Source: Heptranchias perlo
Lineage: Eukaryota
Assembly: GCF_035084215.1 (NCBI RefSeq)
Contig: NC_090352.1
Coordinates: 1,612,001-1,676,000, forward strand
Direction: 5' to 3'
DNA: 64,000 nt
Below are positions 2,731 to 64,000 of the stretch, in pieces. The translations under genes and the position numbers were made by a program. The first letter of the stretch is position 1; each line of letters begins with the position of its first letter. Below the pieces are notes generated by a model, which was given only the letters and a program-made list of their open reading frames with translations, made no database searches and was not told where the DNA came from.

Positions 2731-3602
2731 ATGATGGCACCTTACTTATTAAAATGAGAAACTAGTGCTGATGTAGTAAAAATAAAGTGGATGGCCTTGT
2801 GACGTAAATCTGCGGTGTCTGGGTTGCAGCAGTATCTGGTTGGTGTCATCACCTGATCCCTGCGGTGTGAGTTGTGCTGTTTGTTTATCATTATTAGTTT
2901 AAATTCTCGTTTCCTATGAAAAGAAAAGTTATGGAACTAATTTTTGTTCCTATCAATATGTTGGAGAAGTTTTGAAAATCCCAGGAGTGTAGTAAGCTCT
3001 ACTTTAAAATGTTTGAGCTTTCAAGAAATATTTCTCTGCCTGAGGTGTAGCTGGAGTGATGATAGAAAAGTGGAAAAGTTGAAGTCTGCTTTTACTCAGC
3101 TTCATCTTGCAAAACATAATAAATATAACTGTTTTTCTTCTAAAAGCCTCGTGTAATGATTTATATTTGTATTTTGAAATAGATTGCCACATTAATATTA
3201 AAAGTGTTTAATTTGGCAAGGATGGTCTTGGAGGCCAATCCTTTGGAATCCAGCTGTTCTCAGAACATCTTTTTGATTTAAAAAAAAAATTGAGCTTAAA
3301 TCACCTGTTAAAGCTTACATCAGTTTATCAAACAATAATGAATAGCATGAGTCACCAAGAAAAGACTAGAAGACTAATGCCCGGATACTGCAAATTACCG
3401 AGTTACAAATTGCACTAAACCCTTTGCGTTCTCCTGACAATAGTAATGTAAAATGCTGTAGCAGATTTCCATTTGAGTAAAGCCACCTTTCTTTGATCTG
3501 ACGATTAGTATATTAATATGTGATGACAAACAAAATGCCCTTTAACCCTGTTACTGGAATTAACTTGTGTGTATTTTAAACAAATGCCTTTTAAGTTATA
3601 TC

Positions 3603-8316: not shown

Positions 8317-10980
8317 ATAGGGTCAGCTTCTACATGTGTGCTGATGACACCCAACTCCACCACCTCTCTCGACCCCTCCACTGCCTCTGCGTTGTCAAGC
8401 TGCTTGTCCGATATGTGGATGAGCTGCAATTTCCTCCAATTGAACATTGGGAATCATAGAATCATAGAAGTTACAACATGGAAACAGGCCCTTCGGCCCA
8501 ACATGTCCATGTCGCCCAGTTTATACCACGAAGCTAGTCCCAATTGCCTGCACTTGGCCCATATCCCTCGATACCCATCTTACCCATGTAACTGTCCAAA
8601 TGCTTTTTAAAAGACAAAATTGTACCCGCCTCTACTACTGCCTCTGGCAGCTCGTTCCAGACACTCACCACCCTTTGAGTGAAAAAATTGCCCCTCTGGA
8701 CCCTTTTGTATCTCTCCCCTCTCACCTTAAATCTGTGCCCCCTCGTTATAGACTCCCCTACCTTTGGGAAAAGATTTTGACTATCGACCTTATCTATGCC
8801 CCTCATTATTTTATAGACTTCTATAAGATCACCCCTTAACCTCCTACTCTCCAGGGAAAAAAGTCCCAGTCTATCTAACCTCTCCCTATAAGTCAAACCA
8901 TCAAATCCCGGTAGCATCCTAGTAAATCTTTTCTGCACTCTTTCTAGTTTAATAATATCCTTTCTATAATAGGGTGACCAGAACTGTACTCAGTACTCCA
9001 AGTGTGGCCTCACCAATGCCCTGTACAACTTCAACAAGACATCCCAACTCCTGCATTCAATGTTCTGACCAATGAAACCAAGCATGCTGAATGCCTTCTT
9101 CACCACCCTATCCACCTGTGACTCCACTTTCAAGGAGCTATGAATCTGTACTCCCAGATCTCTTTGTTCTATAACTCTCCCCAACGCCCTACCATTAACG
9201 GAGTAGGTCCTGGCCCGATTCGATCTACCAAAATGCATCACCTCACATTTATCTAAATTAAACTCCATCTGCCATTCATCGGCCCACTGGCCCAATTTAT
9301 CAAGATCCCGTTGCAATCCCAGATAACCTTCTTCACTGTCCACAATGCCACCAATCTTGGTGTCATCTGCAAACTTACTAACCATGCCTCCTAAATTCTC
9401 ATCCAAATCATTAATATAAATAACAAATAACAGCGGACCCAGCACCGATCCCTGAGGCACACCGCTGGACACAGGCATCCAGTTTGAAAAACAACCCTCT
9501 ACAACCACCCTCTGTCTTCTGTCGTCAAGCCAATTTTGTATCCAATTGGCTACCTCACCTTGGATCCCATGAGATTTAACCTTATGTAACAACCTACCAT
9601 GCGGTACCTTGTCAAATGCTTTGCTGAAGTCCATGTAGACCACGTCTACTGCACAGCCCTCATCTATCTTCTTGGTTACCCCTTCAAAAAACTCAATCAA
9701 ATTCGTGAGACATGATTTTCCTCTCACAAAACCATGCTGACTGTTCCTAATTAGTCCCTGCCTCTCCAAATGCCTGTAGATCCTGTCCCTCAGAATACCC
9801 TCTAACAACTTACCCACTACAGATGTCAGGCTCACTGGTCTGTAGTTCCCAGGCTTTTCCCTGCCGCCCTTCTTAAACAAAGGCACAACATTTGCTACCC
9901 TCCAATCTTCAGGCACCTCACCTGTAGCGGTGGATGATTCAAATATCTCTGCTAGGGGACCCGCAATTTCCTCCCTAACCTCCCATAACGTCCTGGGATA
10001 CATTTCATCAGGTCCCGGAGATTTATCTACCTTGATGCGCGTTAAGACTTCCAGCACCTCCCTCTCTGTAATATGTACACTCCTCAAGACATCACTATTT
10101 ATTTCCCCAAGTTCCCTAACATCCATGCCTTTCTCAACCGTAAATACCGATGTGAAATATTCATTCAGGATCTCACCCATCTCTTGTGGTTCCGCACTTA
10201 GATGACCTTGTTGATCCTTAAGAGGCCCTACTCTCTCCCTAGTTACCCATTTGCCATTGTTTTTTGCCCCTGCCACAAACTCTATATACTCTCGGCACTG
10301 ATCCCATCCCCCTCCCCGGCCATTGGCTCAAGCCAAACAAGATTATTTGCAACCTGGGTGTCCTTTTCAACCTCGACCTCGGGCTTGGCTTCTTGGCTCA
10401 TATACTCTCCACAAGGACCACCAGCTTCCACCTCCGTAACATTGTCCGCCTCTGCCTCAACCCATCTGCCACTGAAACCCTCATCCATGCTTTTGTCCCA
10501 TTTAGACTTGACTATTCCAATGCTTTCCTGGCCGGCCTTCCATCCTCTATAAACGTCAGCTCACCTAAATCTCTGCTACCCGTATCCTATTCGGCATCAG
10601 GTCTCGCTCACCCATCAACCTTGTCCTTGCTGATCTATATTGACTCCTGATCCCCCACTCTTCCAATTTAAAATTCTCATCCTTGTGTTTAAATCCCTTC
10701 ATGACTTTGCCCCTCCGTCTGTAACCTCCAGCCCCACAACACCCAGAACTTTTTGTTCCTCTGTCTCTGGCCTTTTGTGCATCCTCCCCTCCCTTTGTCG
10801 CACCTTTGGCAGCTGTGCCTTCAGCTACTTAGGCCTCAATGTCTGTAGTTCCCGCCATTAATCTCTTCACCTCTCTCTCCTCCTTCAAGAACCTCCTTAA
10901 AAGCCACCTTTTTGACCAAACCTTTGGTCACCCCTCCTAATCTCTCCTTGTGAAGCGCCTTGGGACATTTTTCTACGAAA
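8317..10980 (+). mobile_element. L2 LINE 3' portion (pieces ~6248-6263, 8317-8450, ~10253-10980) split by Harbinger and CR1 insertions
   Basis: Decayed SFYMCADDT (YADD), FLQLNIG, then ETLIHAFVPFRLDYSNAFLAGLP and FKILILVFKSLH; colinear with the L2 at 60575-61515. Confidence 0.8.
8451..10252 (-). mobile_element. Young 5'-truncated CR1 LINE (RT domain, one nonsense codon)
   Basis: ORF 8990-10276 has KSPGPDE, PGNYRPVSLTS, DFSKAFDKVPH, GVPQGSVLGP, FADD; TGA at 8990-8992 replaces TGT of the copy at 31.3 kb; (ATTCTATG)n-type tail at 8451. Confidence 0.95.
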
Positions 10981-16729: not shown

Positions 16730-18965
16730 TGCTGGATCTAGTAATGGGAAATTAACCGGAGCAGATCAGAGAAGTGAGTGTAGGGGAGCATCTAGGCAAT
16801 AGCAACCATAACGGTTTAAAATAATGATTGAGAAAGACAGAAGTAAGACAAAAACCAAAGTAATGGATTGGAAAAAAGCTAATTTTGAGGGGATGAGAAT
16901 GGAACTAGGGAAGGTAAACTGGAAAAAAAAATTAACAGACAAAAAGATAGAACAGCAGTGGGAAATATTTAACGCGGTGATCAATACAGTTTAGGACAAA
17001 TATATTCCTATTTAAAAAAACAAGAACAAACTAGCCAATAATAAAACACCATGGATGAATAAAGAGATAAGGGTAAAAATGAAACGAAAGAAAAAGGAAT
17101 ACTCTAAATACATCATAGACAATAAAGGAGAGGATGACAAAAGGTAACACAAAGAGGTTAGGAAAGAAGTCAAAAAAACAATTGGGAGAACAAAGAGGAA
17201 CTATGAAATTAAATTATCAAGGAATATCAAAAGAAATAGTAAAGTATTCTACAGACCCACAAATAACAAAAGAAAAATCAGGATAGGGCCACTAGGGGAT
17301 GCACACGATAAACTCACAGGTAATGACAGCAAAGTGGCAGAAATATTGAATAGTTACTTTGCCTCAGTATTTACCAGGGAGACTAACAAGGTGGGCATGA
17401 CATTAGAAGAAAAGATCAAAAAAGGGATAAAGACATTCAAGATTGAAAGGGTGGAGATAATTGATAAACTAATCAAACTGAGAGAGGATAAAACCCCTGG
17501 TCCGGATGGATTACATCCGTGCATATTAAAAAGAAGTTAGGGAAGCGTTAGGGAGGCACTATTATATGATTATAAAAATTCATTAGAAAAGGGAATAGTG
17601 CCAGAGGACTGTCAGACAGATAATGTTATTCCTGTGTTTAAAAAGGAAGATATAACAAGTCCAGGAAACTATAGACCAGTTAGCTTAATGTTGGTGGTAG
17701 GACAGATAATGGAATCTTTACTCAAAGATGTAATAGAAAAACATCTAGAAAATGAAAATATAATAAAGAATAGTCAGCACGGATTTGAGAAGGGAAAGTC
17801 ATGCTTGACCAACCTTATTGAATTCTTTGAAGAAGTAACAGAAAGAGTAGACAAGGATAATGAAGTAGATATAATATTTGGATTTTCAGAAGGCCTTCGA
17901 TAAGGTACCGCATTGTAGACTCAAGACTAAGGTCAGAGCATGCAGAGCCAGGGGACAGGTAGCAGAATGGATAGCAAGCTAGGTCCACTATTGTTCACAA
18001 TTTACATTAACAATTTGGACTCTGGAATCGGAAGTACAATTTCAAAATTTTCGGACTGCGCCAAATTGGGGGTGTAGATAATGCAAAGGAAGAATGCGTC
18101 AAAATGCAAGAGGATATTAATAAACTTGCAGAATGGATGTGTAATTGGCAAATTAATTTCAATATAGATAAATACTGAGGTGGTACATTTTGGTAGGAAG
18201 AATAAGGAGGCCACATGCTGCTTGGATAATAAGAGTCTAAACGGGATAGAGGAGCAAAGGGATCTCAGGATACAGATACACAAATCACTAAAAGTAGCGA
18301 TGCAGGTTAATAAGGCCATAAAAAGGCAAACCAAGCACTGGGATTCATTTCTAGTAGAATAGAATTGAAAAGCAGAGAAGTTATGTTAAACTCCTTTGGG
18401 TAAAAACCTCCTCGACCATATTTGGAGCACTGTGCACAGTTCTGGTCTCCATATTGTAAAAAGGATATAGAGGCATTGGACAAGGTGCAAAAATGAATGA
18501 CAAGGATGATACCAGAACTGAGAGGATATGCTTATCAGGAAAGACTAAACAACCTGGGGCTCATTTCTCTAGAAAAGAGAAGGCTGAGGTGTGACCTGTT
18601 AGAGATCTTTAAGATAATGAAAGGGTAGAGAAAATGTTTCCACTTGTGTGGGATTCCAAAAACTAGGGGTCATAAATATAAGATAGTCACTAATAAATCC
18701 AGTAGGGAATTCAGGAGAAACTTCTTTACACAAAGAGTGGTAAGAATGTGGAAAATGGTACCACAAGGAGTAGTTGAGGCAAATAACTTAGATGCATTTA
18801 AGGGGAAGCTAGATAAGCACACGAGGGAGAAAGGAATAGAAGGGTATGCTGATCAGGTGAGATGAAGTAGAGTGGGAGGACGCTTGTGTGGAGCATCAAC
18901 GCCAGCATAGACCAGTTGGACCGAATGGCCTGTTTCTGTACTGTGCACTCAATGTAACTCAATTT
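16730..18965 (+). mobile_element. Decayed CR1 LINE ORF2 and 3' UTR
   Basis: AEILNSYFASVFT, KTPGPDGLHP, PGNYRPVSL, KSCLTNLIEFFEEVT, TRGHKYKI..RRNFFTQRVV; many frameshifts and an internal deletion near 17985. Confidence 0.92.
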
Positions 18966-30757: not shown

Positions 30758-31801
30758 GATAGAATCATAGAATCATAGAATCATAGAAGTTACAACATGG
30801 AAACAGGCCCTTCGGCCCAACATGTCCATGTCGCCCAGTTTATACCACTAAGCTAGTCCCAATTGCCTGCACTTGGCCCATATCCCTCGATACCCATCTT
30901 CCCCATGTAACTGTCCAAATGCTTTTTAAAAGACAAAATTGTACCCGCCTCGACTGCTGCCTCTGGCAGCTCGTTCCAGACACTCACCACCCTTTGAGTG
31001 AAAAAATTGCCCCTCTGGATCCTTTTGTATCTCTCCCCTCTCACCTTAAATCTGTGCCCCCTCGTTATAGACTCCCCTCCCTTTGGGAAAAGATTTTGAC
31101 TATCGACCTTATCTATGCCCCTCATTATTTTATAGACTTCGATAAGATCACCCCTTAACCTCCTACTCTCCAGGGAAAAAAGTCCCAGTCTGTCTAACCT
31201 CTCCCTGTAAGTCAAACCATCAAGTCCCGGTAGCATCCTAGTAAATCTTTTCTGCACTCTTTCTAGTTTAATAATATCCTTTCTATAATAGGGTGACCAG
31301 AACTGTACACAGTACTCCAAGTGTGGCCTCACCAATGCCCTGTACAACTTCAACAAGACATCCCAACTCCTGCATTCAATGTTCTGACCAATGAAACCAA
31401 GCATGCTGAATGCCTTCTTCACCACCCTATCCACCTGTGACTCCACTTTCAAGGAGCTATGAATCTGTACTCCTAGATCTCTTTGTTCTATAACTCTCCC
31501 CAACGCCCTACCATTAACGGAGTAGGTCCTGGCCTGATTCGATCTACCAAAATGCATCACCTCACATTTATCTAAATTAAACTCCATCTGCCATTCATCG
31601 GCCCACTGGCCCAATTTATCAAGATCCCGTTGCAATCCTAGATAACCTTCTTCACTGTCCACAATGCCACCAATCTTGGTGTCATCTGCAAACTTACTAA
31701 CCATGCCTCCTAAATTCTCATCCAAATCATTAATATAAATAACAAATAACAGCGGACCCAGCACCGATCCCTGAGGCACACCGCTGGACACAGGCATCCA
31801 G
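30758..31801 (-). mobile_element. Young 5'-truncated CR1 LINE with open ORF2 C-terminus
   Basis: WMPVSSGVPQGSVLGP..FADD..GYGPSAGNWD uninterrupted; (ATTCTATG)3 tail; about 98.5% identical to 8451-9481 by eye. Confidence 0.95.
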
Positions 31802-36415: not shown

Positions 36416-37213
36416 TTTTTTTATTCGTTCATGGGATGTGGACGTCGCTGGCGAGGCTGGCATTTATTGCCCATCCCTAATTGCCCTTGAGAAGGTGGTG
36501 GTGAGCTGCCTTCTTGAACCGCTGCAGTGCGTGTGGTGAAGGTTCTCCCACAGTGCTGTTAGGAAGGGAGTTCCAGGATTTTGACCCAGCGATGATGAAG
36601 GAACGGCGATATATTTCCAAGTCGGGGTGGTGTGTGACTTGGAGAGGAACATGCAGGTGGTGTTGTTCCCATGTACCTGCTGCTCTTGTCCTTCTAGGTG
36701 GTAGAGGTCACGGGTTTGGGAGGTGCTGTCAAAGAAGCCTTGGCGAGTTGCTGCAGTGCATCCTGTGGATGGTACATACTGCAGCCATTGTGCGCCGGTG
36801 GTGAAGGGAGTGAATGTTTTGGGTGGTGGATGGGGTGCCAATCAAGCGGGCTGCTTTGTCCTGGATGGTGTCGAGCTTCTTGAGTGTTGTTGGAGCTGCA
36901 CTCATCCAAGCAAGTGGAGAGTATTCCATCAAACTCATGACTTGTGCCTTGTAGATGGTGGAAAGGCTTTGGGGAGTCAGGAGGTGAGTCACTCGCCGCA
37001 GAATACCCAGCGTCTGACCTGCTCTTGTAGCCACAGTATTTATATGGCTGCTCCAGTTAAGTTTCTGGTCAATGGTGACCCCCAGGATGTTGATGGTGGG
37101 GGATTCGGCGATGGTAATGCCGTTGAATGTCAAGGGGAGGTGGTTAGACTCTCTCTTGTTGGAGATGGTCATTGCCTGGCACTTGTCTGGCACGAATGTT
37201 ACTTGCCACTTAT
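36416..37213 (-). mobile_element. APE-RT non-LTR element (CR1-group), copy 1, 3' part
   Basis: KWQVTFVPDKCQAMTISNKR..YKAQVMSLMEYSPLAW; 3' UTR with AATAAA and A-rich tail. Confidence 0.92.
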
Positions 37214-37278
37214 TTTTAAAAAAAATTTGTTCACGGGATGTGGGCGTCGCTGGCAAGGCCGGCATTTATTGCCCATCC

Positions 37279-40170
37279 CTAATTGCCCTCGAGAAGGTGG
37301 TGGTGAGCCGCATTCTTGAACCGCTGCAGTCCGTGTGGTGACGGTTCTCCCACTGTGCTGTTAGGAAGGGAGTTCCAGGATTTTGACCCAGCGACAATGA
37401 AGGAACGGCGATATATTTCCAAGTCGGGATGGTGTGTGACTTGGAGGGGAACGTGCAGGTGGTGTTGTTCCCATGCGCCTGCTGCCCTTGTCCTTCTAGG
37501 TGGGAGAGGTCGAGGGTTTGGGAGGTGCTGTCGAAGAAGCCTTGGCGAGTTGCTGCAGTGCATCCTGTGGATGGTGCACACTGCAGCCACAGTGCGCCGG
37601 TGGTGAAGGGAGTGAATGTTTAGGGTGGTGGATGGGGTGCCAATCAAGCGGGCTGCTTTATCTTGGATGGTGTCGAGCTTCTTGAGTGTTGTTGGAGCTG
37701 CACTCATCCAGGCAAGTGGAGAGTATTCCATCACACTCCTGACTTGTGCCTTGTAGATGGTGGAAAGGCTTTGGGGAGTCAGGAGGTGAGTCACTCGCCG
37801 CAGAATACCCAGCTTCTGACCTCCTCTCGTAGCCACAGTATTTATGTGGCTGGTCCAGTTAAGTTTCTGGTCAATGGTGACCCCCAGGATGTTGATGGTG
37901 GGGGATTCGGCGATGGTAATGCCGTTGAATGTCAAGGGGAGGTGGTTAGACTCTCTCTTGTTGGAGATGGTCATTGCCTGGCACTTATCTGGCGCGAATG
38001 TTACTTGCCACTTATCAGCCCAAGCCTGGATGTTGTCCAGGTCTTGCTGCATGCGGGCTCGGACTGCTTCATTATCTGAGGGGTTGCGAATGAAACTGAA
38101 CACTGTGCAGTCATCAGCGAACATCCCCATTTCTGACCTTATGATGGAGGGAAGGTCATTGATGAAGCAGCTGAAGATGGTTGGGCCTCAGACACTGCCC
38201 TGAGGAACTCCTGCAGCAATGCCCTGGGGCTGAGATGCTTGGCCTCCAACAACCACTACCATCTTCCTTTGTGCTAGGTATGACTCCAGCCACTGGAGAG
38301 TTTTCCCCCTGATTCCCATTGACTTCAATTTTACTAGGGCTCCTTGGTGCCACACTCGGTCAAATGCTGCCTTGATGTCAAGGGCAGTCACTCTCACCTC
38401 ACCTCTGGAATTCAGCTCTTTTGTCCATGTTTGGACCAAGGCTGTAATGAGGTCTGGAGCCGAGTGGTCCTGGCGGAACCCAAACTGAGCATCGGTGAGC
38501 AGGTTATTGGTGAGTAAGTGCCGCTTGATAGCACTGTCGACGACACCTTCCATCACTTTGCTGATGATTGAGAGTAGACTTATGGGGCAGTAATTGGCCG
38601 GATTGGATTTGTCCTGCTTTTTGTGGACAGGACATACCTGGGCAATTTTCCACATTGTCGGGTGGATGCCAGTGTTGTAGCTGTACTGGAACAGTTTGGC
38701 TAGAGGCGCAGCTAGTTCTGGAGCACAAGTCTTCAGCACTACAGCTGGGATGTTGTCGGGGCCCATAGCCTTTGCTGTATCCAGTGCACTCAGCTGTTTC
38801 TTGATATCACGTGGAGTGAATCGAATTGGCCGAAGACTGGCTTCCGTGATGGTGGGGATATCGGGAGGAGGCTGAGATGGATTATCCACTCGGCACTTCT
38901 GGCTGAAGATGGTTGCAAACGCTTCAGCCTTGTCTTTTGCACTCACGTGCTGGACTCCGCCATCATTGAGAATGGGGATGTTTGCAGAGCCTCCTCCTCC
39001 CGTTAGTTGTTTAATTGTCCACCACCATTCACGACTGGATGTGGCAGGACTGCAGAGCTTTGATCTGATCCGTTGGTTGTGGAATCGCTTAGCTCTGTCT
39101 ATAGCATGTTGCTTCCGCTGTTTAGCATGCATGTAGTCCTGAGTTGTAGCTTCACCAGGTTGGCACCTCATTTTTCGGTACGCCTGGTGCTGCTCCTGGC
39201 ATGCTCTTCTACACTCCTCATTGAACCAGGGTTGATCCCCTGGCTTGTTGGTAATGGTAGAGTGAGGAATATGCCGGGCCATGAGGTTACAGATTGTGCT
39301 GGAATACAATTCTGCTGCTGCTGATGGCCCACAGCGCCTCATGGATGCCCAGTTTTGAGCTGCGAGATCTGTTCTGAATCTATCCCATTTAGCACGGTGG
39401 TAGTGCCACACAACACGTTGGATGGTGTCCTCAGTGCGAAGACGGGATTTCATCTCCACGAGGACTGTGCGGTGGTCACTCCTACCAATACTGTCATGGA
39501 CAGATGCATTTGCGACAGGTAGATTGGTGAGGACGAGGTCAAGTAAGTTTTTCCCTCGTGTTGGTTCGCTCACCACCTGCCGCAGGCCCAGTCTAGCAGC
39601 TATGTCCTTCAGGTAGTGGTGCTACCGAGCCACTCTTGGTGATGGACATTGAAGTCTCCCACCCAGAGTACATTTTGTGCCCTTGCTACCCTCAGTGCTT
39701 CCTCCAAGTGGTGTTCAACATGGAGGAGGACGGTAGGTGGTAATCAGCAGGAGGTTTCCTTGCCCATGTTTGACCTGATGCCATGAGATTTCATGGGGTC
39801 CAGAGTCAATGTTGAGGACTCCCAGGGCCACTCCCTCCTGACTGTATATCACTGTACCGCCACCTCTGGTGGGTCTGTCCTGCCGGTGGGACAGGACATA
39901 CCCAGGGATGGTGATGGAAGAGTCTGGGACGTTGGCTGAAAGATATGATTCTGTGAGTATGGCTATGTCAGGCTGTTGCTTGACTAGTCTGTGGGACAGC
40001 TCTCCCAATTTTGGCACAAGTCCCCAGATGTTAGTAAGGAGGACCTTGCAGGGTCGACTGGGCTTGGTGTTTTGCCGTTGTCGTGTCCGGTGCCTAGTGG
40101 TCCGTCCGGTTTTATTCTTATTATGACTTTTCGTAGCGAGATTTTACAACTGAGTGGCTTGCTCGGCCAT
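37279..40170 (-). pseudogene. AP-endonuclease / reverse transcriptase ORF, disrupted
   Basis: KVLLTNIWGL, PDIAILTESYL, RQDRPTRGGG, GDFN (shifted frame between ~39612 and ~39727), PTRGKNLLDLVLTN, SDH, KAMGPDNIP, LDIKAAFDRVWH, GVPQGSV*GP, FADD. Stops at 40144-40146 and 38188-38190. Confidence 0.92.
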
Positions 40171-40404
40171 TTCAGAGGGCAATTAAGAATCAACCACATT
40201 GCTGTGGGTCTGGAGTCACATATAGGCCAGACCAGGTAAGGACGGCAGGCTTCCTTCCCTAAAGGACATTAGTGAACCAGATGGGTTTTTACGACAATCC
40301 GGTAGTTTCATGGCCATCATTACTGATACTAGTATTTTAATTCCAGATTTTATTTTTTAATTAATTGAATTTAATTAATTAATTGAATTTAAATTCGCCA
40401 GCTG

Positions 40405-40494
40405 CTGTGGCGGGATTTGAACTCATGACTCTGGATTTAGTCCAGGCCTCTGGATTACTAGCCCAGTAACATAACCACTATGCTTCCGTACCCC
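40405..40494 (-). promoter_or_regulatory. tRNA-Thr(AGT)-like head with Pol III A and B boxes
   Basis: A box AAGCATAGTGG (40485-40475); D-stem GCAT/ATGT; anticodon arm CTGGG-CTAGTAA-TCCAG; B box GAGTTCAAATCCC (40424-40412). Confidence 0.75.
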
Positions 40495-41356
40495 AAGCCT
40501 GGATATTGTCCAGGTCTTGCTGCATGCGAGCTCGGACTGCTTCATTTTCTGAGGGGTTGCGAATGGAACTGAACACTGCAATCATCAGTGAACATCCCCA
40601 TTTCTGACCTTACGTTGGATGGAAAGTCATTGATGAAGCAGCTGAGGATGGTTGGGCCTAGGACACTGCCCTGAGGAACTCCTGCAGCAATGCCCTGGGG
40701 CTGAGATGATTGGCCTCCAACAACCACTACCATCTTCCTTTGTGCTAGGTGTGACTCCAGCCACTGGAGTTTTCCCCCTGATTCCCATTGACTTCAATTT
40801 TACTTGGGCTCCTTGGTGCCACACTCGGTCAAATGCTGCCTTGATGTCAAGGGCAGTCACTCTCACCTCACCTCTGGAATTCAGCTCTTTTGTCCATGTT
40901 TGGACCAAGGCTGTAATGAGGTCTGGAGTCGAGTGGTCCTGGCGGAACTCAAACTGAGCATCGGTGAGCAGGTTATTGGTGAGTAAGTGCCGCTTGATAG
41001 CACTGTCGACGACACCTTCCATCACTTTGCTGATGATTGAGAGTAGACTGATGGGGCGGTAATTGGCCGGATTGGATTTGTCCTGCTTTTTGTGGACGGG
41101 ACATACCTGGGCAATTTTCCACATTGTCGGGTAGATGCCAGTGTTGTAGCTGTACTGGAACAGCTTGGCTAGAGGTGCAGCTAATTCTGGAGCACAAGTC
41201 TTCAGCACTACAGCTGGGATGTTGTCAGGCCCATAGCTTTTGCTGTATCCAGTGCACTCAGCCGTTTCTTGATATCACGTGGAGTGAATCGAATTGGCTG
41301 AAGACTGGCTTCCGTGATGGTGGGGATGTCGGGAGGAGGCCGAGATGGATCATCCA
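40492..41356 (-). mobile_element. APE-RT element copy 1, 5' part (5'-truncated)
   Basis: Resumes where 37213 stops (cacttat|cccaagcctgg; copy 2 reads cacttatcagcccaagcctgg); LKTCAPELAAPLAKLFQ..NPANYRPISLLS. Confidence 0.92.
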
Positions 41357-47529: not shown

Positions 47530-47900
47530 CAATACGCACCCCCTCCACCACTGGCGTACTGTGGCTGCCAAATATATTATCTACAGGATGAACTGCAGCA
47601 ATTCACCAAGCTTACTTCAGCATCTCCCAACCCCAACCTCCACTATCATGAAGGATAAGAGCAGCAACATCATGATAACCAAGTTCCCCTCCAAGTTGCA
47701 CATCATCCTGACTTCGACGTATTCTGACGTCCCTTCATCGTCGCTGTGTCAATATCCTGGAAATCCCTCCCTAACACCATTGTGGGAGCACCTTCACCTC
47801 AAGGACTACAGCGGGTTGAGGCCACCACCGCCTTCTCAGGTGGGCAATAATTGCGGCTTTGCCAGCGTCAGCCCACATCTCAAGAACAAATAAAAAAAGA
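47530..47900 (+). mobile_element. Old 3' fragment of the same APE-RT family as 36416-41356
   Basis: HPLHHWRTVAAKYIIYRMNCSNSPSLL; 3' UTR gggcaataa..gccagcgtcagcccacatc..aataaaaaaa. Confidence 0.85.
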
Positions 47901-48898: not shown

Positions 48899-50310
48899 AG
48901 AATCATGGAGAGGTTACAGCACGGAAGGAGGCCATTTGGCCCATCGAGTCCGTGCTGGCTCTATGCAAGAGCAATCCAGCTAGTCGCACTCCCCTGCCCT
49001 ATCCCCGTGGCCCTGCAAATTTTTTACTTTTGAGTACTTATCCAGTTCCCTTTTGAAGGCCATGATTGAATCTGCCTCCACCACCCCCTCAGGCAGTGCA
49101 TTCCAGATCCTAACCACTCGCTGCGTAAAAAAGTTTTTCCTCATGTCACCTTTGGTTCTTTTACCAATCACCTTAAATCTCTGCCCTCTAGTTCTTGACC
49201 CTTCTGCCAATGGGTACAGTTTCTCTCTATCTATCTCTGTCAAGACCCTTCATGATTTTGAACACCTCTATCAAATCTCCTCTCAACCTTCTCTGTTTCA
49301 AAGAGAACAACCCCAGCTTCTCCAGTCTATCCATGTAACTAAAGTCCCTCATCCCTGGAATCATTCTAGCAAATCTCTTCTGCACCTCTCTAAGGCCATC
49401 ACATCTTTCCTAAAGAGCGGTGCCCAGAACTGGACACACTACTCCAGTTGTGGCTGAACCAGTGTTTTATAAAAGTTCATCATGACTTCCTTACTTTTGT
49501 ATTCTATGCCTCCATTTATAAAGCCCAGGATCCCGTATGCTTTTCTAACTGCTTTCTCAACCTGTCCTGTCACCTTCAACAATTTGTGCACTTATACCCC
49601 CAGATCTCTCTGTTCCTGTACCCCTTTTAGAATTGTGCCCTCTAGTTTATATTGCCTCTCCCTGTTCTTCCTACTGAAATGTATCACTTCACATTTTTCT
49701 GTGTTAAATTTCATCTGCCACATGTCCACCCATGCCACCAATCTGTCTCTATTCTCTTGAAGTCTATCACTGTCCTCCTCACTGTTCACTACCCTTCCAA
49801 GTTTAGTGTCATCTGCAAAGTTTGAAACTGTGCCCTGTACACCCAAGCCCAAGTCATTAATTTATATCAAGAAAAGCTGTGGTCCTAGTACCGACCCCTG
49901 AGGAACACCACTGTACACCTCCCTCCAGTCTGAAAAACAACCGTGCACCACTACTCTCTGCTTCCTGTCACTTAACCCTGTATCCATGTTGCTTCTGCCC
50001 CCTTTAGTCCATGGGCTGCAATCTTGATGACAAGCCTACCATGCGGTACTTTATTAAACGCCTTTTGAAAGTCCATATACACCACATCAACTGCATTGCC
50101 CTCATCTACCTTCTCTGTTACCTCATCAAAAAACTCTATCAAGTTAGTTAAACACTTAGGGAAGTTAGGGAAAGCCAGTAACTGTTAATTCTGTCCCAGA
50201 TTATCGTTTCTAAAAGTTCCCACCACCGGGGTTTAGCTGACTGGCCTGTAGGTGCTGGGTTTATCCGTACACCCTTTTTTGAACAAGGGTGTAACATCTG
50301 CAATTCTCTA
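48899..50310 (-). mobile_element. CR1 LINE with an internal deletion near 50155-50200
   Basis: FADDTKLGRVVNSEEDSDRLQ, KFNTEKCEVIHF, SRTRGQRFKVIGKR, RKNFFTQRVVRIWNALP. Confidence 0.92.
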
Positions 50311-54140: not shown

Positions 54141-54398
54141 TGTAAGGAATCTTACAACACCAGGTTATAGTCCAACAGTTTTATTTGAAAATCACAAGCT
54201 TTCGGAGGCTTTCTCCTTCGTCAGGTGAGTGTGGGATTCCATGAATGGTACCGCATATATAGTCAGAGAACAATGCCTGGTAATTACAGATAATCTTTCC
54301 AACTGCCCGTTATCAAGGCAATCAAAGGAGTTGAATAGTGTTCAGACAGAGAGGCATTACATACAGGACTACTGAATATACAAACGGTCAGAACCCAA

Positions 54399-54433
<35 letters not shown>

Positions 54434-54480
54434 TCCGAAAGGAAGAGAAAGAGAGAGAATGACCAGCTGTATTAAAAACA
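54141..54480 (-). mobile_element. Solo PLE pseudo-LTR
   Basis: Colinear with 1370-1714 including the (CT)n tract and terminal ggactataacctggtgttgtaagattccttaca. Confidence 0.92.
54192..54228 (-). ncRNA. Minimal type-I hammerhead ribozyme motif
   Basis: TCAC-CTGACGA-A-GGAG(aaagc)CTCC-GAA-AGCT-T-GTGA on the minus strand. Confidence 0.85.
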
Positions 54481-55160
54481 GGAAGTTAAGATAATGGACC
54501 AACCATATTGTACCCTTATGCAGTGATGTGGAAGAGCAGAGGGGTTCGGGAATTAAAAGCAGCAACTTGCGGATAAGGCCATAAAAAAAGCAAATGGAAG
54601 AATACTGGGTTTTCTAGAAAGAGGTATGGAACATAAAAGTCAAGATGTAATGGTGAATCTGCACAAAACCTTAGTAAGACCACAGTTGGAGGACTGTATG
54701 CAATTTTAGGCTCGACACTATAGGAAGGATGAGGAGGCAATAGAGAGGGTACAGTGCAGATTTACACTGGATGCTGCCTGGTATGAGGAAGTACAAAAAT
54801 GGAAAATTGGGGCTGTTTTTGTTAGAACAGAGGAGACCACAGGGTGATCTGACAGAGGTATTTAAAATTATGATGGGATGTGACAGGGTAGATAGAAACA
54901 GACTGTTTCCAGTGGCTAAGGACAAGGGGACAGAGACATAAGATTAAATGTAAGAGATTTAGGACAGAGAACTGGAGAAATCCTTTTACGCAGAGGGCTG
55001 TGAGGCTGTGGAATGCACGACTGGAGTTAGTGATTGAAGCAGAGACCAGGTCAACATTTAAGAGTAGGTTAGATAGGTGGTTGAAGGAAAGGGTGATAAA
55101 AGGAGATGGGAACACGGGGTTAGTGTACTGCTCATGTGGAGGATAAACACCAATATGTAA
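54481..55160 (+). mobile_element. Decayed CR1 3' portion
   Basis: Remnants of LVRPQLEDCMQF and RRNPFTQRAVRLWNA; same subfamily as 36000-36415. Confidence 0.85.
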
Positions 55161-61515: not shown

Positions 61516-61720
61516 TTTACAGGGATGGTGCAAGATGTAGGAAGACTAAATGGTGGAAAAATAACAACGTTAGCCTCAGGTTAGGGGTCTGCAAAGGTGC
61601 TATCTTAGTTTTAAAGGACATGTAAATTAACACTATGTCCAAAGTGGTAAGTTGCGTGCCACTTTTCAACAGTAAGGAGTTGCACAACACCAGGTTATAG
61701 TCCAACAGCTTTATTTGAAA

Positions 61721-61757
61721 TCACAAGCTTTCAGAGCTTTGCTCCTTCGTCAGGTGA
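61721..61757 (-). ncRNA. Minimal type-I hammerhead ribozyme motif (left arm)
   Basis: TCAC-CTGACGA-A-GGAGC(aaa)GCTCT-GAA-AGCT-T-GTGA on the minus strand. Confidence 0.83.
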
Positions 61758-62332
61758 AGTGAAGAGATGCATAAAGGCACAGCATATATAGTCAGAGAAC
61801 AATGTCTGGTGATTACAGATAATCTTTCTAACTGCCCTTTAATCACACCTCGGCAGAGAGATAATCACAGCAATCAAAGGAGTGAATGGTGTTCAAACAG
61901 GTTAGTCAGGGAAACATTACATCCAAGAATACTGAGGTGGGGTCATAAGGGGTCAAATGTAGCAGATGCTGGGGTTTGTACTGAAAACAGATAACATTTT
62001 TTTGCTGGAAATCGCAGCAGGTCCGGCCGCATCTGTGTATGGAGACTCCATACACAGATGCGGCCGGACCTGCTGCGATTTCCAGCAAAAAAATGTTATC
62101 TGTTTTCAGTACAAACCCCAGCATCTGCTACATTTGACCCCTTATGACCCCACCTCAGTATTCTTGGATATAATGTTTCCCTGACTAACCTGTTTGAACA
62201 CCATTCACTCCTTTGATTGCTGTGATTATCTCTCTGCCGAGGTGTGATTAAAGGGCAGTTAGAAAGATTATCTGTAATCACCAGACATTGTTCTCTGACT
62301 ATATATGCTGTGCCTTTATGCATCTCTTCACT

Positions 62333-62369
62333 TCACCTGACGAAGGAGCAAAGCTCTGAAAGCTTGTGA
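62333..62369 (+). ncRNA. Minimal type-I hammerhead ribozyme motif (right arm)
   Basis: Same motif on the plus strand, followed by AATAAA at 62375-62380. Confidence 0.83.
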
Positions 62370-64000
62370 TTTCAAATAAACCTGGTGTTGTGCGACTCCT
62401 TACATTTGTCCACCCCAGTCCATCACCGGCATCTCCACATCATGACTTTTCAACAGGACTGCAAACTGCCTGTGCTGAGGTATTTCCTGCATTTGGTAAC
62501 TGACAATACATGGGTCTGTTTTGAAAAATAGTATGCAGCTGAAGAATACAAGAAGGAAAAATGATGAGCTGTCTAATTTGGATGAGGTCCAAATCTAATG
62601 GGACCCTTTTTGATTGTATGGTCTGCATGGTGGTTAATCTGGCCCTGATAGAAACATTGTTTCATGAAATCTATCTTTAAGAAAGAATTCCTGTGTATCT
62701 TAGAAGCCATGGCAAGCAGTATAACATTATCTGGTAGCAATAGATTCAATCACTGAATGCGTCATAAGTGGAAATCTTTCACTTTGATATGGTTTTCTCT
62801 GCGTAAATGGAATGTTAAGAATGGGATTGGAGGAGAGAGGTGTTGGCTGGTATTGAGGCAGAGGGAGGGGATACACTTTGTGTTACGAGTCTATTGCTGG
62901 TTTATAATGGCAATTGTCTAAATTCTCCTTGGCATGAGACCTAAACTGAGGTGCTTCTGGTTGTGCTCGTGCTTGATTTGAAGCTTGCGAGTTTGTAATG
63001 GTAAACAGAGATCGAATTTAAAGATTAATTCACCTTTGTGGCTACGTGTGAGATATTAATGAACAATACATTCCCTTTTATAAGCACTCTTTCCACCAGT
63101 CTTACAACACAGTAAGAAGATTTACTGGAAAACTAATTGCACAGTGTTGACTGCATGAAAGCATGTTTATGGTTGAGATGAGCAAGAAAGGTTTGGATAG
63201 TCCCTTTTGATGTTTGCCTGTTTTCACTCATGACAGGTCTTGAAATAAGTGGTGTAACAGCCAAGCTGTACACAGTCAGCAACGCCTGCTCACCACTCTA
63301 CAAGTTTCAGTTTTCATTGTGATTGAAAACTGTGCCACAGTTTTGAAATGAAACTCACTGGTACATACATGTTCCAAAACCTGGTACAAGATTGTACTAC
63401 AAAGCAGTTTCACAATTTGTTGTCGTTTCTGCCTTGCATATTGGGAAATTAGCAAAAGATTCAGATTTGATGTGTCACTTTTTGGGGTATTTTTGCGGTT
63501 TAAATAATTTTTAAAAATGCTTTGCTGTCTGTCTTGATTTTTCCATATCCACAAATGTAAAAAAAATTATAGATTGCTTTAAAACGTATTGCAACTCACA
63601 ATTTTGTAGTGCACGATTGACTCTGTAGTGAGCACAATGCTATCAGTAGATCATTTTGAACTTTACATGGCTGAGGTGTAGTCTTTCCAATCCCGTGGAG
63701 CTTGGGGAGTGAAATTATAAACAACAATTTGTACTGTACAACAGTATGGGCTGAAAGCTGTTCTGCTTCTTTTGCATTTGTTGTTCAGTTTGAGGCTAGC
63801 TGAATGAATCCAGAGTGGCACCAGGTGTTGGTCTCTCATTATTCTGTTCAGAATAACAAGGAATGTGGGAATGTAAAAGGGTGAGATGGCAGCAGAGGCC
63901 TGTCATTGTGTGTGTGACAGACCACTTCATAAATAGAAAGTGACAGCTGGGCTAATGATGTCACCAAAGAAGGAACAACTGCACTGCATCTCATTATCTC

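Follow-up and report, generated by a model that had tools for sequence, protein, structure and literature searches.

An APE-RT retrotransposon of 3.28 kb, running on the minus strand from position 40493 to ~37214 of the window (the whole analysed stretch of 64,000 nucleotides from Heptranchias perlo), represents a decayed full-length copy (37214..40493) of an elasmobranch Zenon LINE of the CR1 group, whose members combine a tRNA-like 5′ head with a single open reading frame devoid of a start AUG. Head and AUG-less frame are features of the entire family, and from their sequences we infer transcription by RNA polymerase III (Pol III) as well as a translation start by tRNA mimicry. As the best explanation for the locus as a whole we tentatively propose a decayed Zenon copy with a tRNA-like head, a likely Pol III RNA and a predicted hairpin–GCU start as in dicistrovirus IRESs. 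A more far-reaching reading, and a rather doubtful one, would be an autonomous coding retrotransposon that bypasses Pol II and canonical initiation altogether, with an uncapped 3.3 kb RNA, a tRNA mimic loading the ribosomes and repeated shedding of SINEs by template jumps. If true, an animal genome would for the first time be shown to harbour an IGR-IRES-like element; two rules would fall, the one limiting Pol III to short, non-coding RNAs and the one tying coding retrotransposons to Pol II, and SINEs would arise from a LINE in one step. The AUG-less ORF and the tRNA-like head alone already alter the annotation of these abundant shark elements and touch the open questions of how ORF1-less LINEs synthesize protein and where SINE heads and bodies originate, for which dozens of intact natural copies and a 5′ module of 350 nt, conserved among both sharks and rays, provide a resource.

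The window copy is 97% identical to intact copies over its own length, and the layout of its 5′ 400 nt equals that of the published Zenon consensus rows. Its ORF (37279..40143, minus strand) comprises 973 amino acids in intact copies, with Pfam matches to RVT_1 and, weakly, to Exo_endo_phos (E = 0.012); the nearest named protein match, to a shark gene model, covers part of the query at 94% identity. The frame is preceded by a UTR of ~350 nt, leaving no room for an ORF1, which bears out the initial description as an ORF1-less APE-RT LINE, and is followed by a short 3′ UTR with AATAAA and an A/T-run tail (37214..37278, minus strand). In the window the ORF is broken by a 23-nt deletion (39724), a 19-nt deletion (39612) and a TGA at 38190, indicating a dead copy, and it also contains an in-frame 15-nt deletion at 40096 that is common to other copies. 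The insertion host is a 5′-truncated copy of the same family, 96% identical, whose 5′ part (40492..41356) and 3′ part (36421..37213) flank the element on the minus strand; the insertion removed ~3 nt of the target and created no duplication. An older 3′ fragment of the family, 72% identical, lies on the plus strand at 47537–47893, and fragments of other LINE families with 22–39% protein identity to the ORF are located at 8807–10162, 16860–18172, 31126–31791 and 49424–49918. Furthermore, the window contains a near-perfect inverted repeat of 342 nt with 1 nt between its arms (61703–62387), related to repeats at ~1370–1713 and 54141–54481. Pieces of the LINE protein are also included in the shark gene models P0002, P0009, P0016, P0021, P0030 and P0031 of public databases, either as exons or as misannotations.

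To delineate the family, we searched the genome with the 5′ 795 nt of the element, scored 40 of 1522 candidates and fetched 30 loci. The tRNA-like head forms the 5′ start in all 30 of these head-selected loci, each with unrelated flanks. A second sample, collected with the distant protein P0004 to avoid selecting for the head, yielded 47 matches with frames of 968–1000 aa, 42 of them without internal stop. Here, 25 of 30 copies start within the first 39 nt of the element and the other five are cut inside the UTR; a headless full form, an ORF1-bearing form or another 5′ part was observed in none of the 30. The sequence-only reading had claimed that head and ORF entered as one unit, and had named beforehand full copies without the head or with an ORF1 as the outcome that would speak against it; the sampled copies contain no such form, and the unit is family-wide (30/30 head-selected, 25/30 protein-selected). 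Likewise, a one-off template-switch chimera can be ruled out, as these loci share the head and five other species display the same layout. A reading of the headed form as such a chimera or as a non-autonomous passenger, its ORF never being translated, is most improbable: whereas the lack of a start AUG and the broken window copy would fit this scenario, thousands of hairpin matches, dozens of intact frames, purifying selection on the frame, the layout in the five species and the 30 protein-selected copies all contradict it. The copies diverge from the column majority by 1.2% on average, and 7103 exact genomic matches were counted for a 23-mer from the UTR hairpin versus 0 for the reversed control. 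The LINE family is abundant, young and recently active in sharks.

A 16-mer search together with a by-eye comparison of the first 400 nt matched the family to the named Zenon consensus, and the features characteristic of Zenon, namely APE and RT within one ORF, absence of ORF1 and A-run tails (70 tails listed), were all observed. The main text of the report on these elements (PMC13343379) describes the Zenon elements of sharks and rays as all lacking ORF1, ending in poly-A, a feature peculiar to Zenon among CR1-group elements, and missing from repeat repositories, so that the missing ORF1 is unsurprising here. Like the window LINE, the consensuses CarCar, HypSab, RhiTyp, ScyCan and SquAca_Zenon have a single APE-RT ORF, no ORF1, poly-A and a length of 3.2–3.3 kb, and head, body, hairpin and GCTA all recur within the first 400 nt of these five elasmobranch rows as printed. 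In contrast, the hagfish and coelacanth rows do not have the head in their first 400 nt. The sequence-only reading allowed that the family may sit in repeat databases; a consensus is in print, and the repeat repositories are reported to lack Zenon (PMC13343379). The clade is known, whereas its 5′ design is not described in the main text of PMC13343379, where tRNA, start codon, promoter, polymerase III, translation and methionine are not mentioned. Among the papers listed by full-text searches of mostly open-access literature, none gives an account of a tRNA-headed or IRES-driven Zenon.

In a quick tree of 77 RTs, P0001 groups weakly (SH-aLRT 89) with proteins encoded on 3.4–4.0 kb contigs. Relatives with the shark-type UTR were found neither among 80 metagenome loci nor among 22 GTDB loci, and a viral scan resulted in 0 loci. 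The 22 GTDB loci (L240–L261) are eukaryotic LINE sequences within bacterial and archaeal MAGs, likely reflecting host contamination. Visual comparison indicates a motif common to the UTR of one metagenomic relative (L101:290–370) and the 5′ region of the published coelacanth Zenon; Rfam gave no match. Other Zenons may possess a different conserved 5′ structure.

The tRNA-like head (40413..40493, minus strand) is composed of an A box (40484–40475), an anticodon loop CTAGTAA with the triplet AGT (40461–40455), a duplicated anticodon-arm-like insert (40445–40429) and a B box (40424–40413), and is followed by an AT-rich spacer (40330..40400, minus strand) that varies in length and lacks a T4 run in the alignment of 30 copies. 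The A box, AGT anticodon arm and B box at the 5′ end agree with the tRNA-Thr-like Pol III head of the sequence-only reading, but the likeness at the model level is weak, with Rfam tRNA scores of 15.1 bits (E = 5) for the window copy and 21.9 bits for an older copy relative to a gathering score of 29, and the Thr label derives from the AGT loop alone. ARAGORN detected 0 tRNA genes. Both boxes are kept at the 5′ end in all five published Zenon species as printed, and the 5′ ends are sharp, most full copies beginning no more than a few bases away from where the head starts. Sense-strand TTTT is absent in 32/38 and 25/30 copies versus ~20 AAAA runs per copy, and other LINE-like repeats of the window, of which four stretches of 0.8–1.3 kb were considered, contain 1–8 sense T4 runs each. 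The proposed check for TTTT depletion was positive for most copies, but the comparison with shuffles yielded P values of only 0.03–0.11. Tails combining an A-run and a T-run occur in 9/70 LINE tails versus 16/408 control A-runs (P = 0.005), where at least two of the nine T-runs may be flank. These features point to a LINE that is probably transcribed by Pol III from its head. A length of 3.3 kb would be unusually great for a Pol III transcript. At one insertion (L059/L030), the first 40 nt of the head are inverted at the 5′ junction.

Alternatively, the head could be a captured SINE 5′ end working with Pol II, or the element could ride along on host transcripts; the RNA would then be capped, and ribosomes would reach the ORF by leaky scanning or reinitiation. 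In favour of this, PMC5786205 regards Pol II as the polymerase transcribing LINEs and their bipartite derivatives, the element has a 3′ AATAAA and poly-A, and its TTTT depletion is statistically weak. This alternative appears unlikely, however, in view of the 5′ ends lying close to the head start in most full copies, the A and B boxes kept in all five published species, and the UTR itself, which contains nine upstream ATGs, disfavouring scanning, but no in-frame AUG.

We next consider the start of the coding frame under the preferred reading of a Pol III transcript. The ATG at 40170 indeed shares the endonuclease frame, as originally noted, but translation from it is contradicted by a TAA at codon 9 (40144..40146, minus strand), which is found in the window copy and in 30/30 head-selected copies and is kept in 26/28 protein-selected copies that retain the hairpin. 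An open frame from MAEQATQL, the proposed amino-terminus, hence does not exist in any of the 30. In addition, codon 3 is TAG in 15/30 copies, the upstream ATG is replaced by GTG in 18/40 aligned rows and in many old copies, and in the published whale-shark row a 6-nt linker places the upstream ATG as well as the TTG before the TAA out of frame, in agreement with the whale-shark protein P0182. Initiation at ATG 40170, with or without readthrough, was rejected on this basis. Stop-free frames of 968–987 aa follow directly after the TAA in 8/39 fetched copies, and the first methionine in four intact copies is residue 246–287, behind the endonuclease.

The nature of the substitutions was analyzed for this frame. 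For 18 copies and 1530 sites, the lineage differences amounted to 11 synonymous versus 5 replacement changes, compared with 162 versus 400 for singletons (P = 0.0013). Third positions make up 21/30 of the ORF variant places among the rows listed (40 of 103) from contigs of other organisms (P = 4e-5), and the test on the old lineage gave P = 0.028 and 0.053. A first test against a single copy, confounded by the changes of that reference copy itself, was not significant (12 versus 14, P = 0.08). At the level of substitution patterns, these data demonstrate purifying selection on the AUG-less frame. As no AUG occurs before residue 246 and the frame is selected, the protein would have to be made without a start AUG.

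The region ahead of the frame contains an anticodon-arm-shaped hairpin (40150..40175, minus strand), which holds ATG 40170 and was delineated by folding and the 7103 23-mer matches. Its apical stem of five pairs ends in the 7-nt loop CUAGCAA (C-U-AGC-A-A; 40165–40159), and GUA, a linker and GCUA follow the hairpin. A stem of five pairs closing a loop of seven nucleotides is the geometry of a tRNA anticodon arm. The in-frame codon GCT(A) (40134..40137, minus strand) is complementary to the loop segment UAGC and represents a candidate pseudoknot partner. In the published rows the hairpin loop is unchanged and GCTA is kept in 5/5 species, GCTA also recurring in loose-end consensuses that stem from other organisms and were chosen without regard to it, while the 6–7 nt linker between them differs: it reads AAATCTC in the window family, CAATCTC or TCAAACC in older lineages and is different again in each published species, being 6 nt long in whale shark. 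Visual reading places GCT within the endonuclease frame for 4/5 published species, SquAca_Zenon-1 being one base off as printed, and the same holds for 3/5 old LINE copies. For the hairpin-selected copies of the old lineage, most of which are deletion products, GCT is kept at its position in 8/23 (10 with ACT). In the window copy a G replaces the loop U at 40164, the most mutated T of the element (27/64 copies) within a general CTAG hot spot.

Covariation within the 5′ module is limited. The loop–codon pairing, for which only 3–4 bp are possible, showed no two-sided change in 40 rows; these represent the 40/84 loci past the coverage filter and were picked by hairpin or GCTA, so that the invariance is partly built in. 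The fifth stem pair is A.C, G-C (18/40 rows) or A-U (stingray, as published). Upstream of the hairpin, the conserved UTR body (40176..40316, minus strand) is predicted from the minimum free energy (MFE) fold of an intact copy to form a long helix of 40281–40272 with 40219–40209 around a hairpin with the loop CUGCC (40248–40244), although its z-score of −1.07 is not significant for this one copy. The body helix exhibits one lineage-level U-A/A-U swap (19 versus 15 of 40 rows), and by eye two series of two-sided changes are evident across the published rows, including an A-U/G-U/G-C series in the body and none in the loop–codon pair. The folding z-scores ranged from −0.25 to −1.58 without reaching significance, RNAalifold preferred a different long-range fold, and no Rfam IRES family was recovered at E values up to 10 or 5. 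In intact copies the A-box region contains GTAGC (40485–40481, minus strand), which is likewise complementary to GCTAC (40137–40133), providing a rival long-range pairing.

Based on these elements we propose a mechanism in which the tRNA-like head would direct Pol III transcription of the LINE, the resulting RNA would be uncapped, the anticodon-like hairpin loop would pair with the in-frame GCU just 3′ of the hairpin, and a ribosome loaded on this pseudoknot would start decoding from the codon after GCU. The pseudoknot and the ribosome loading are a possible, still tentative part of this scheme, suggested by analogy to the type 6 (IGR) IRESs of dicistroviruses, whose pseudoknot I is described, in the sections considered, as a similar loop–codon pairing at the start of an AUG-less frame with a short variable linker (PMC12221177; 10.1101/2024.04.17.590008). 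The non-AUG ORF start typical for this class is found in the LINE, where no AUG precedes residue 246 of a selected frame, and the loop CUGCC in its upstream structured body recalls the SLV loop CAGCC of the IGR IRES. In contrast to an IGR IRES, the LINE offers 3–4 bp only, without covariation, and neither PKII/PKIII, L1.1 nor SLIV/SLV were recovered by the Rfam search, which gave no IRES match, or by RNAalifold, which gave no such fold. Its structure furthermore resides behind a tRNA-like head in a DNA-integrated retrotransposon. IGR IRESs have been raised as a possibility for non-LTR elements, in which case ORF2 definitions would need to be revisited (PMC3894237, in part).

Head-driven transcription could also be combined with a non-AUG start by another route, such as factor-dependent internal entry, shunting or, following a tiny upstream frame of the type AUG-GCC-UAG, reinitiation independent of AUG, with the hairpin and GCUA kept for RNA folding, ORF2p binding or an Ala-Thr-Lys amino-terminus. 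We grant this option a modest chance. The loop–codon pair without covariation is compatible with it, as is the in-frame ACG of the young family, and PMC3894237 treats the initiation of LINE ORF2 as an open question for which it names several non-canonical routes. Furthermore, the distant relatives P0004, beginning with MATKK, and P0075, containing LATKKK, display Ala-Thr-Lys-like amino-termini, so that GCT-ACN-AAR may be kept for a coding reason. On the other hand, the ACG is ACA or AAA in 4/5 published species and the stingray has exchanged Thr for Lys while GCTA stays, and the upstream ATG is GTG in 18/40 rows and lies outside the frame in whale shark. By eye, GCT is followed by ACG, ACA or AAA, showing no conserved near-cognate start, and both the TTG before the TAA and the ACG after GCT were ruled out as general near-cognate starts across the published species.

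Internal deletions of the element yield SINE-like copies with head, body and LINE tail, as had been anticipated, in 5/30 loci picked by the head alone. The left break points of these five lie at element positions 360–404 and the right ones at 3118–3176; the one junction examined is single-copy. In the old lineage, 20/30 loci retrieved with a pattern requiring GCTA join the tail at many different points, 6–25 nt behind the G of GCT, and 134–146 contigs of two other organisms contain a hairpin-to-tail join at a fixed position. Such clustering could result from an RT that leaves the tail and jumps to RNA ends trimmed back as far as the border of a protected 5′ module. SINE2-type SINEs derived from bipartite LINEs (RTE, Vingi) likewise arise by an internal deletion joining 5′ part and 3′ tail, but there the head is added after the deletion, whereas the window LINE, a member of the CR1 group, itself carries the head; in the sections considered, RTE, Ingi, Vingi and R2 are the only sources given for bipartite elements (PMC5786205). 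Set beside the window family by description rather than by sequence, SacSINE1 and the Deu-SINEs of cartilaginous fishes share a tRNA-related head, a conserved body, a LINE tail and a similar length (up to 463 bp), while the reported SacSINE1 tail is L2-2_CM or CR1-4_DR-like, unlike that of the window family. The body is not classified here as a Deu/Nin domain.

Besides these structural features, the young copies show a distinct substitution profile. In 66 of them (L031–L069, L180–L209 and the window copy), T within TpA is changed to G, C or A at 4.0% compared with 0.7% for other T. Within CTAG, 13% of T and 5.7% of A are substituted, the latter with a mirrored spectrum; the sites are unlinked, and other repeats exhibit only a mild excess. 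Candidate causes of this TpA/CTAG excess are a mutational signature of the RT, a host process or assembly error.
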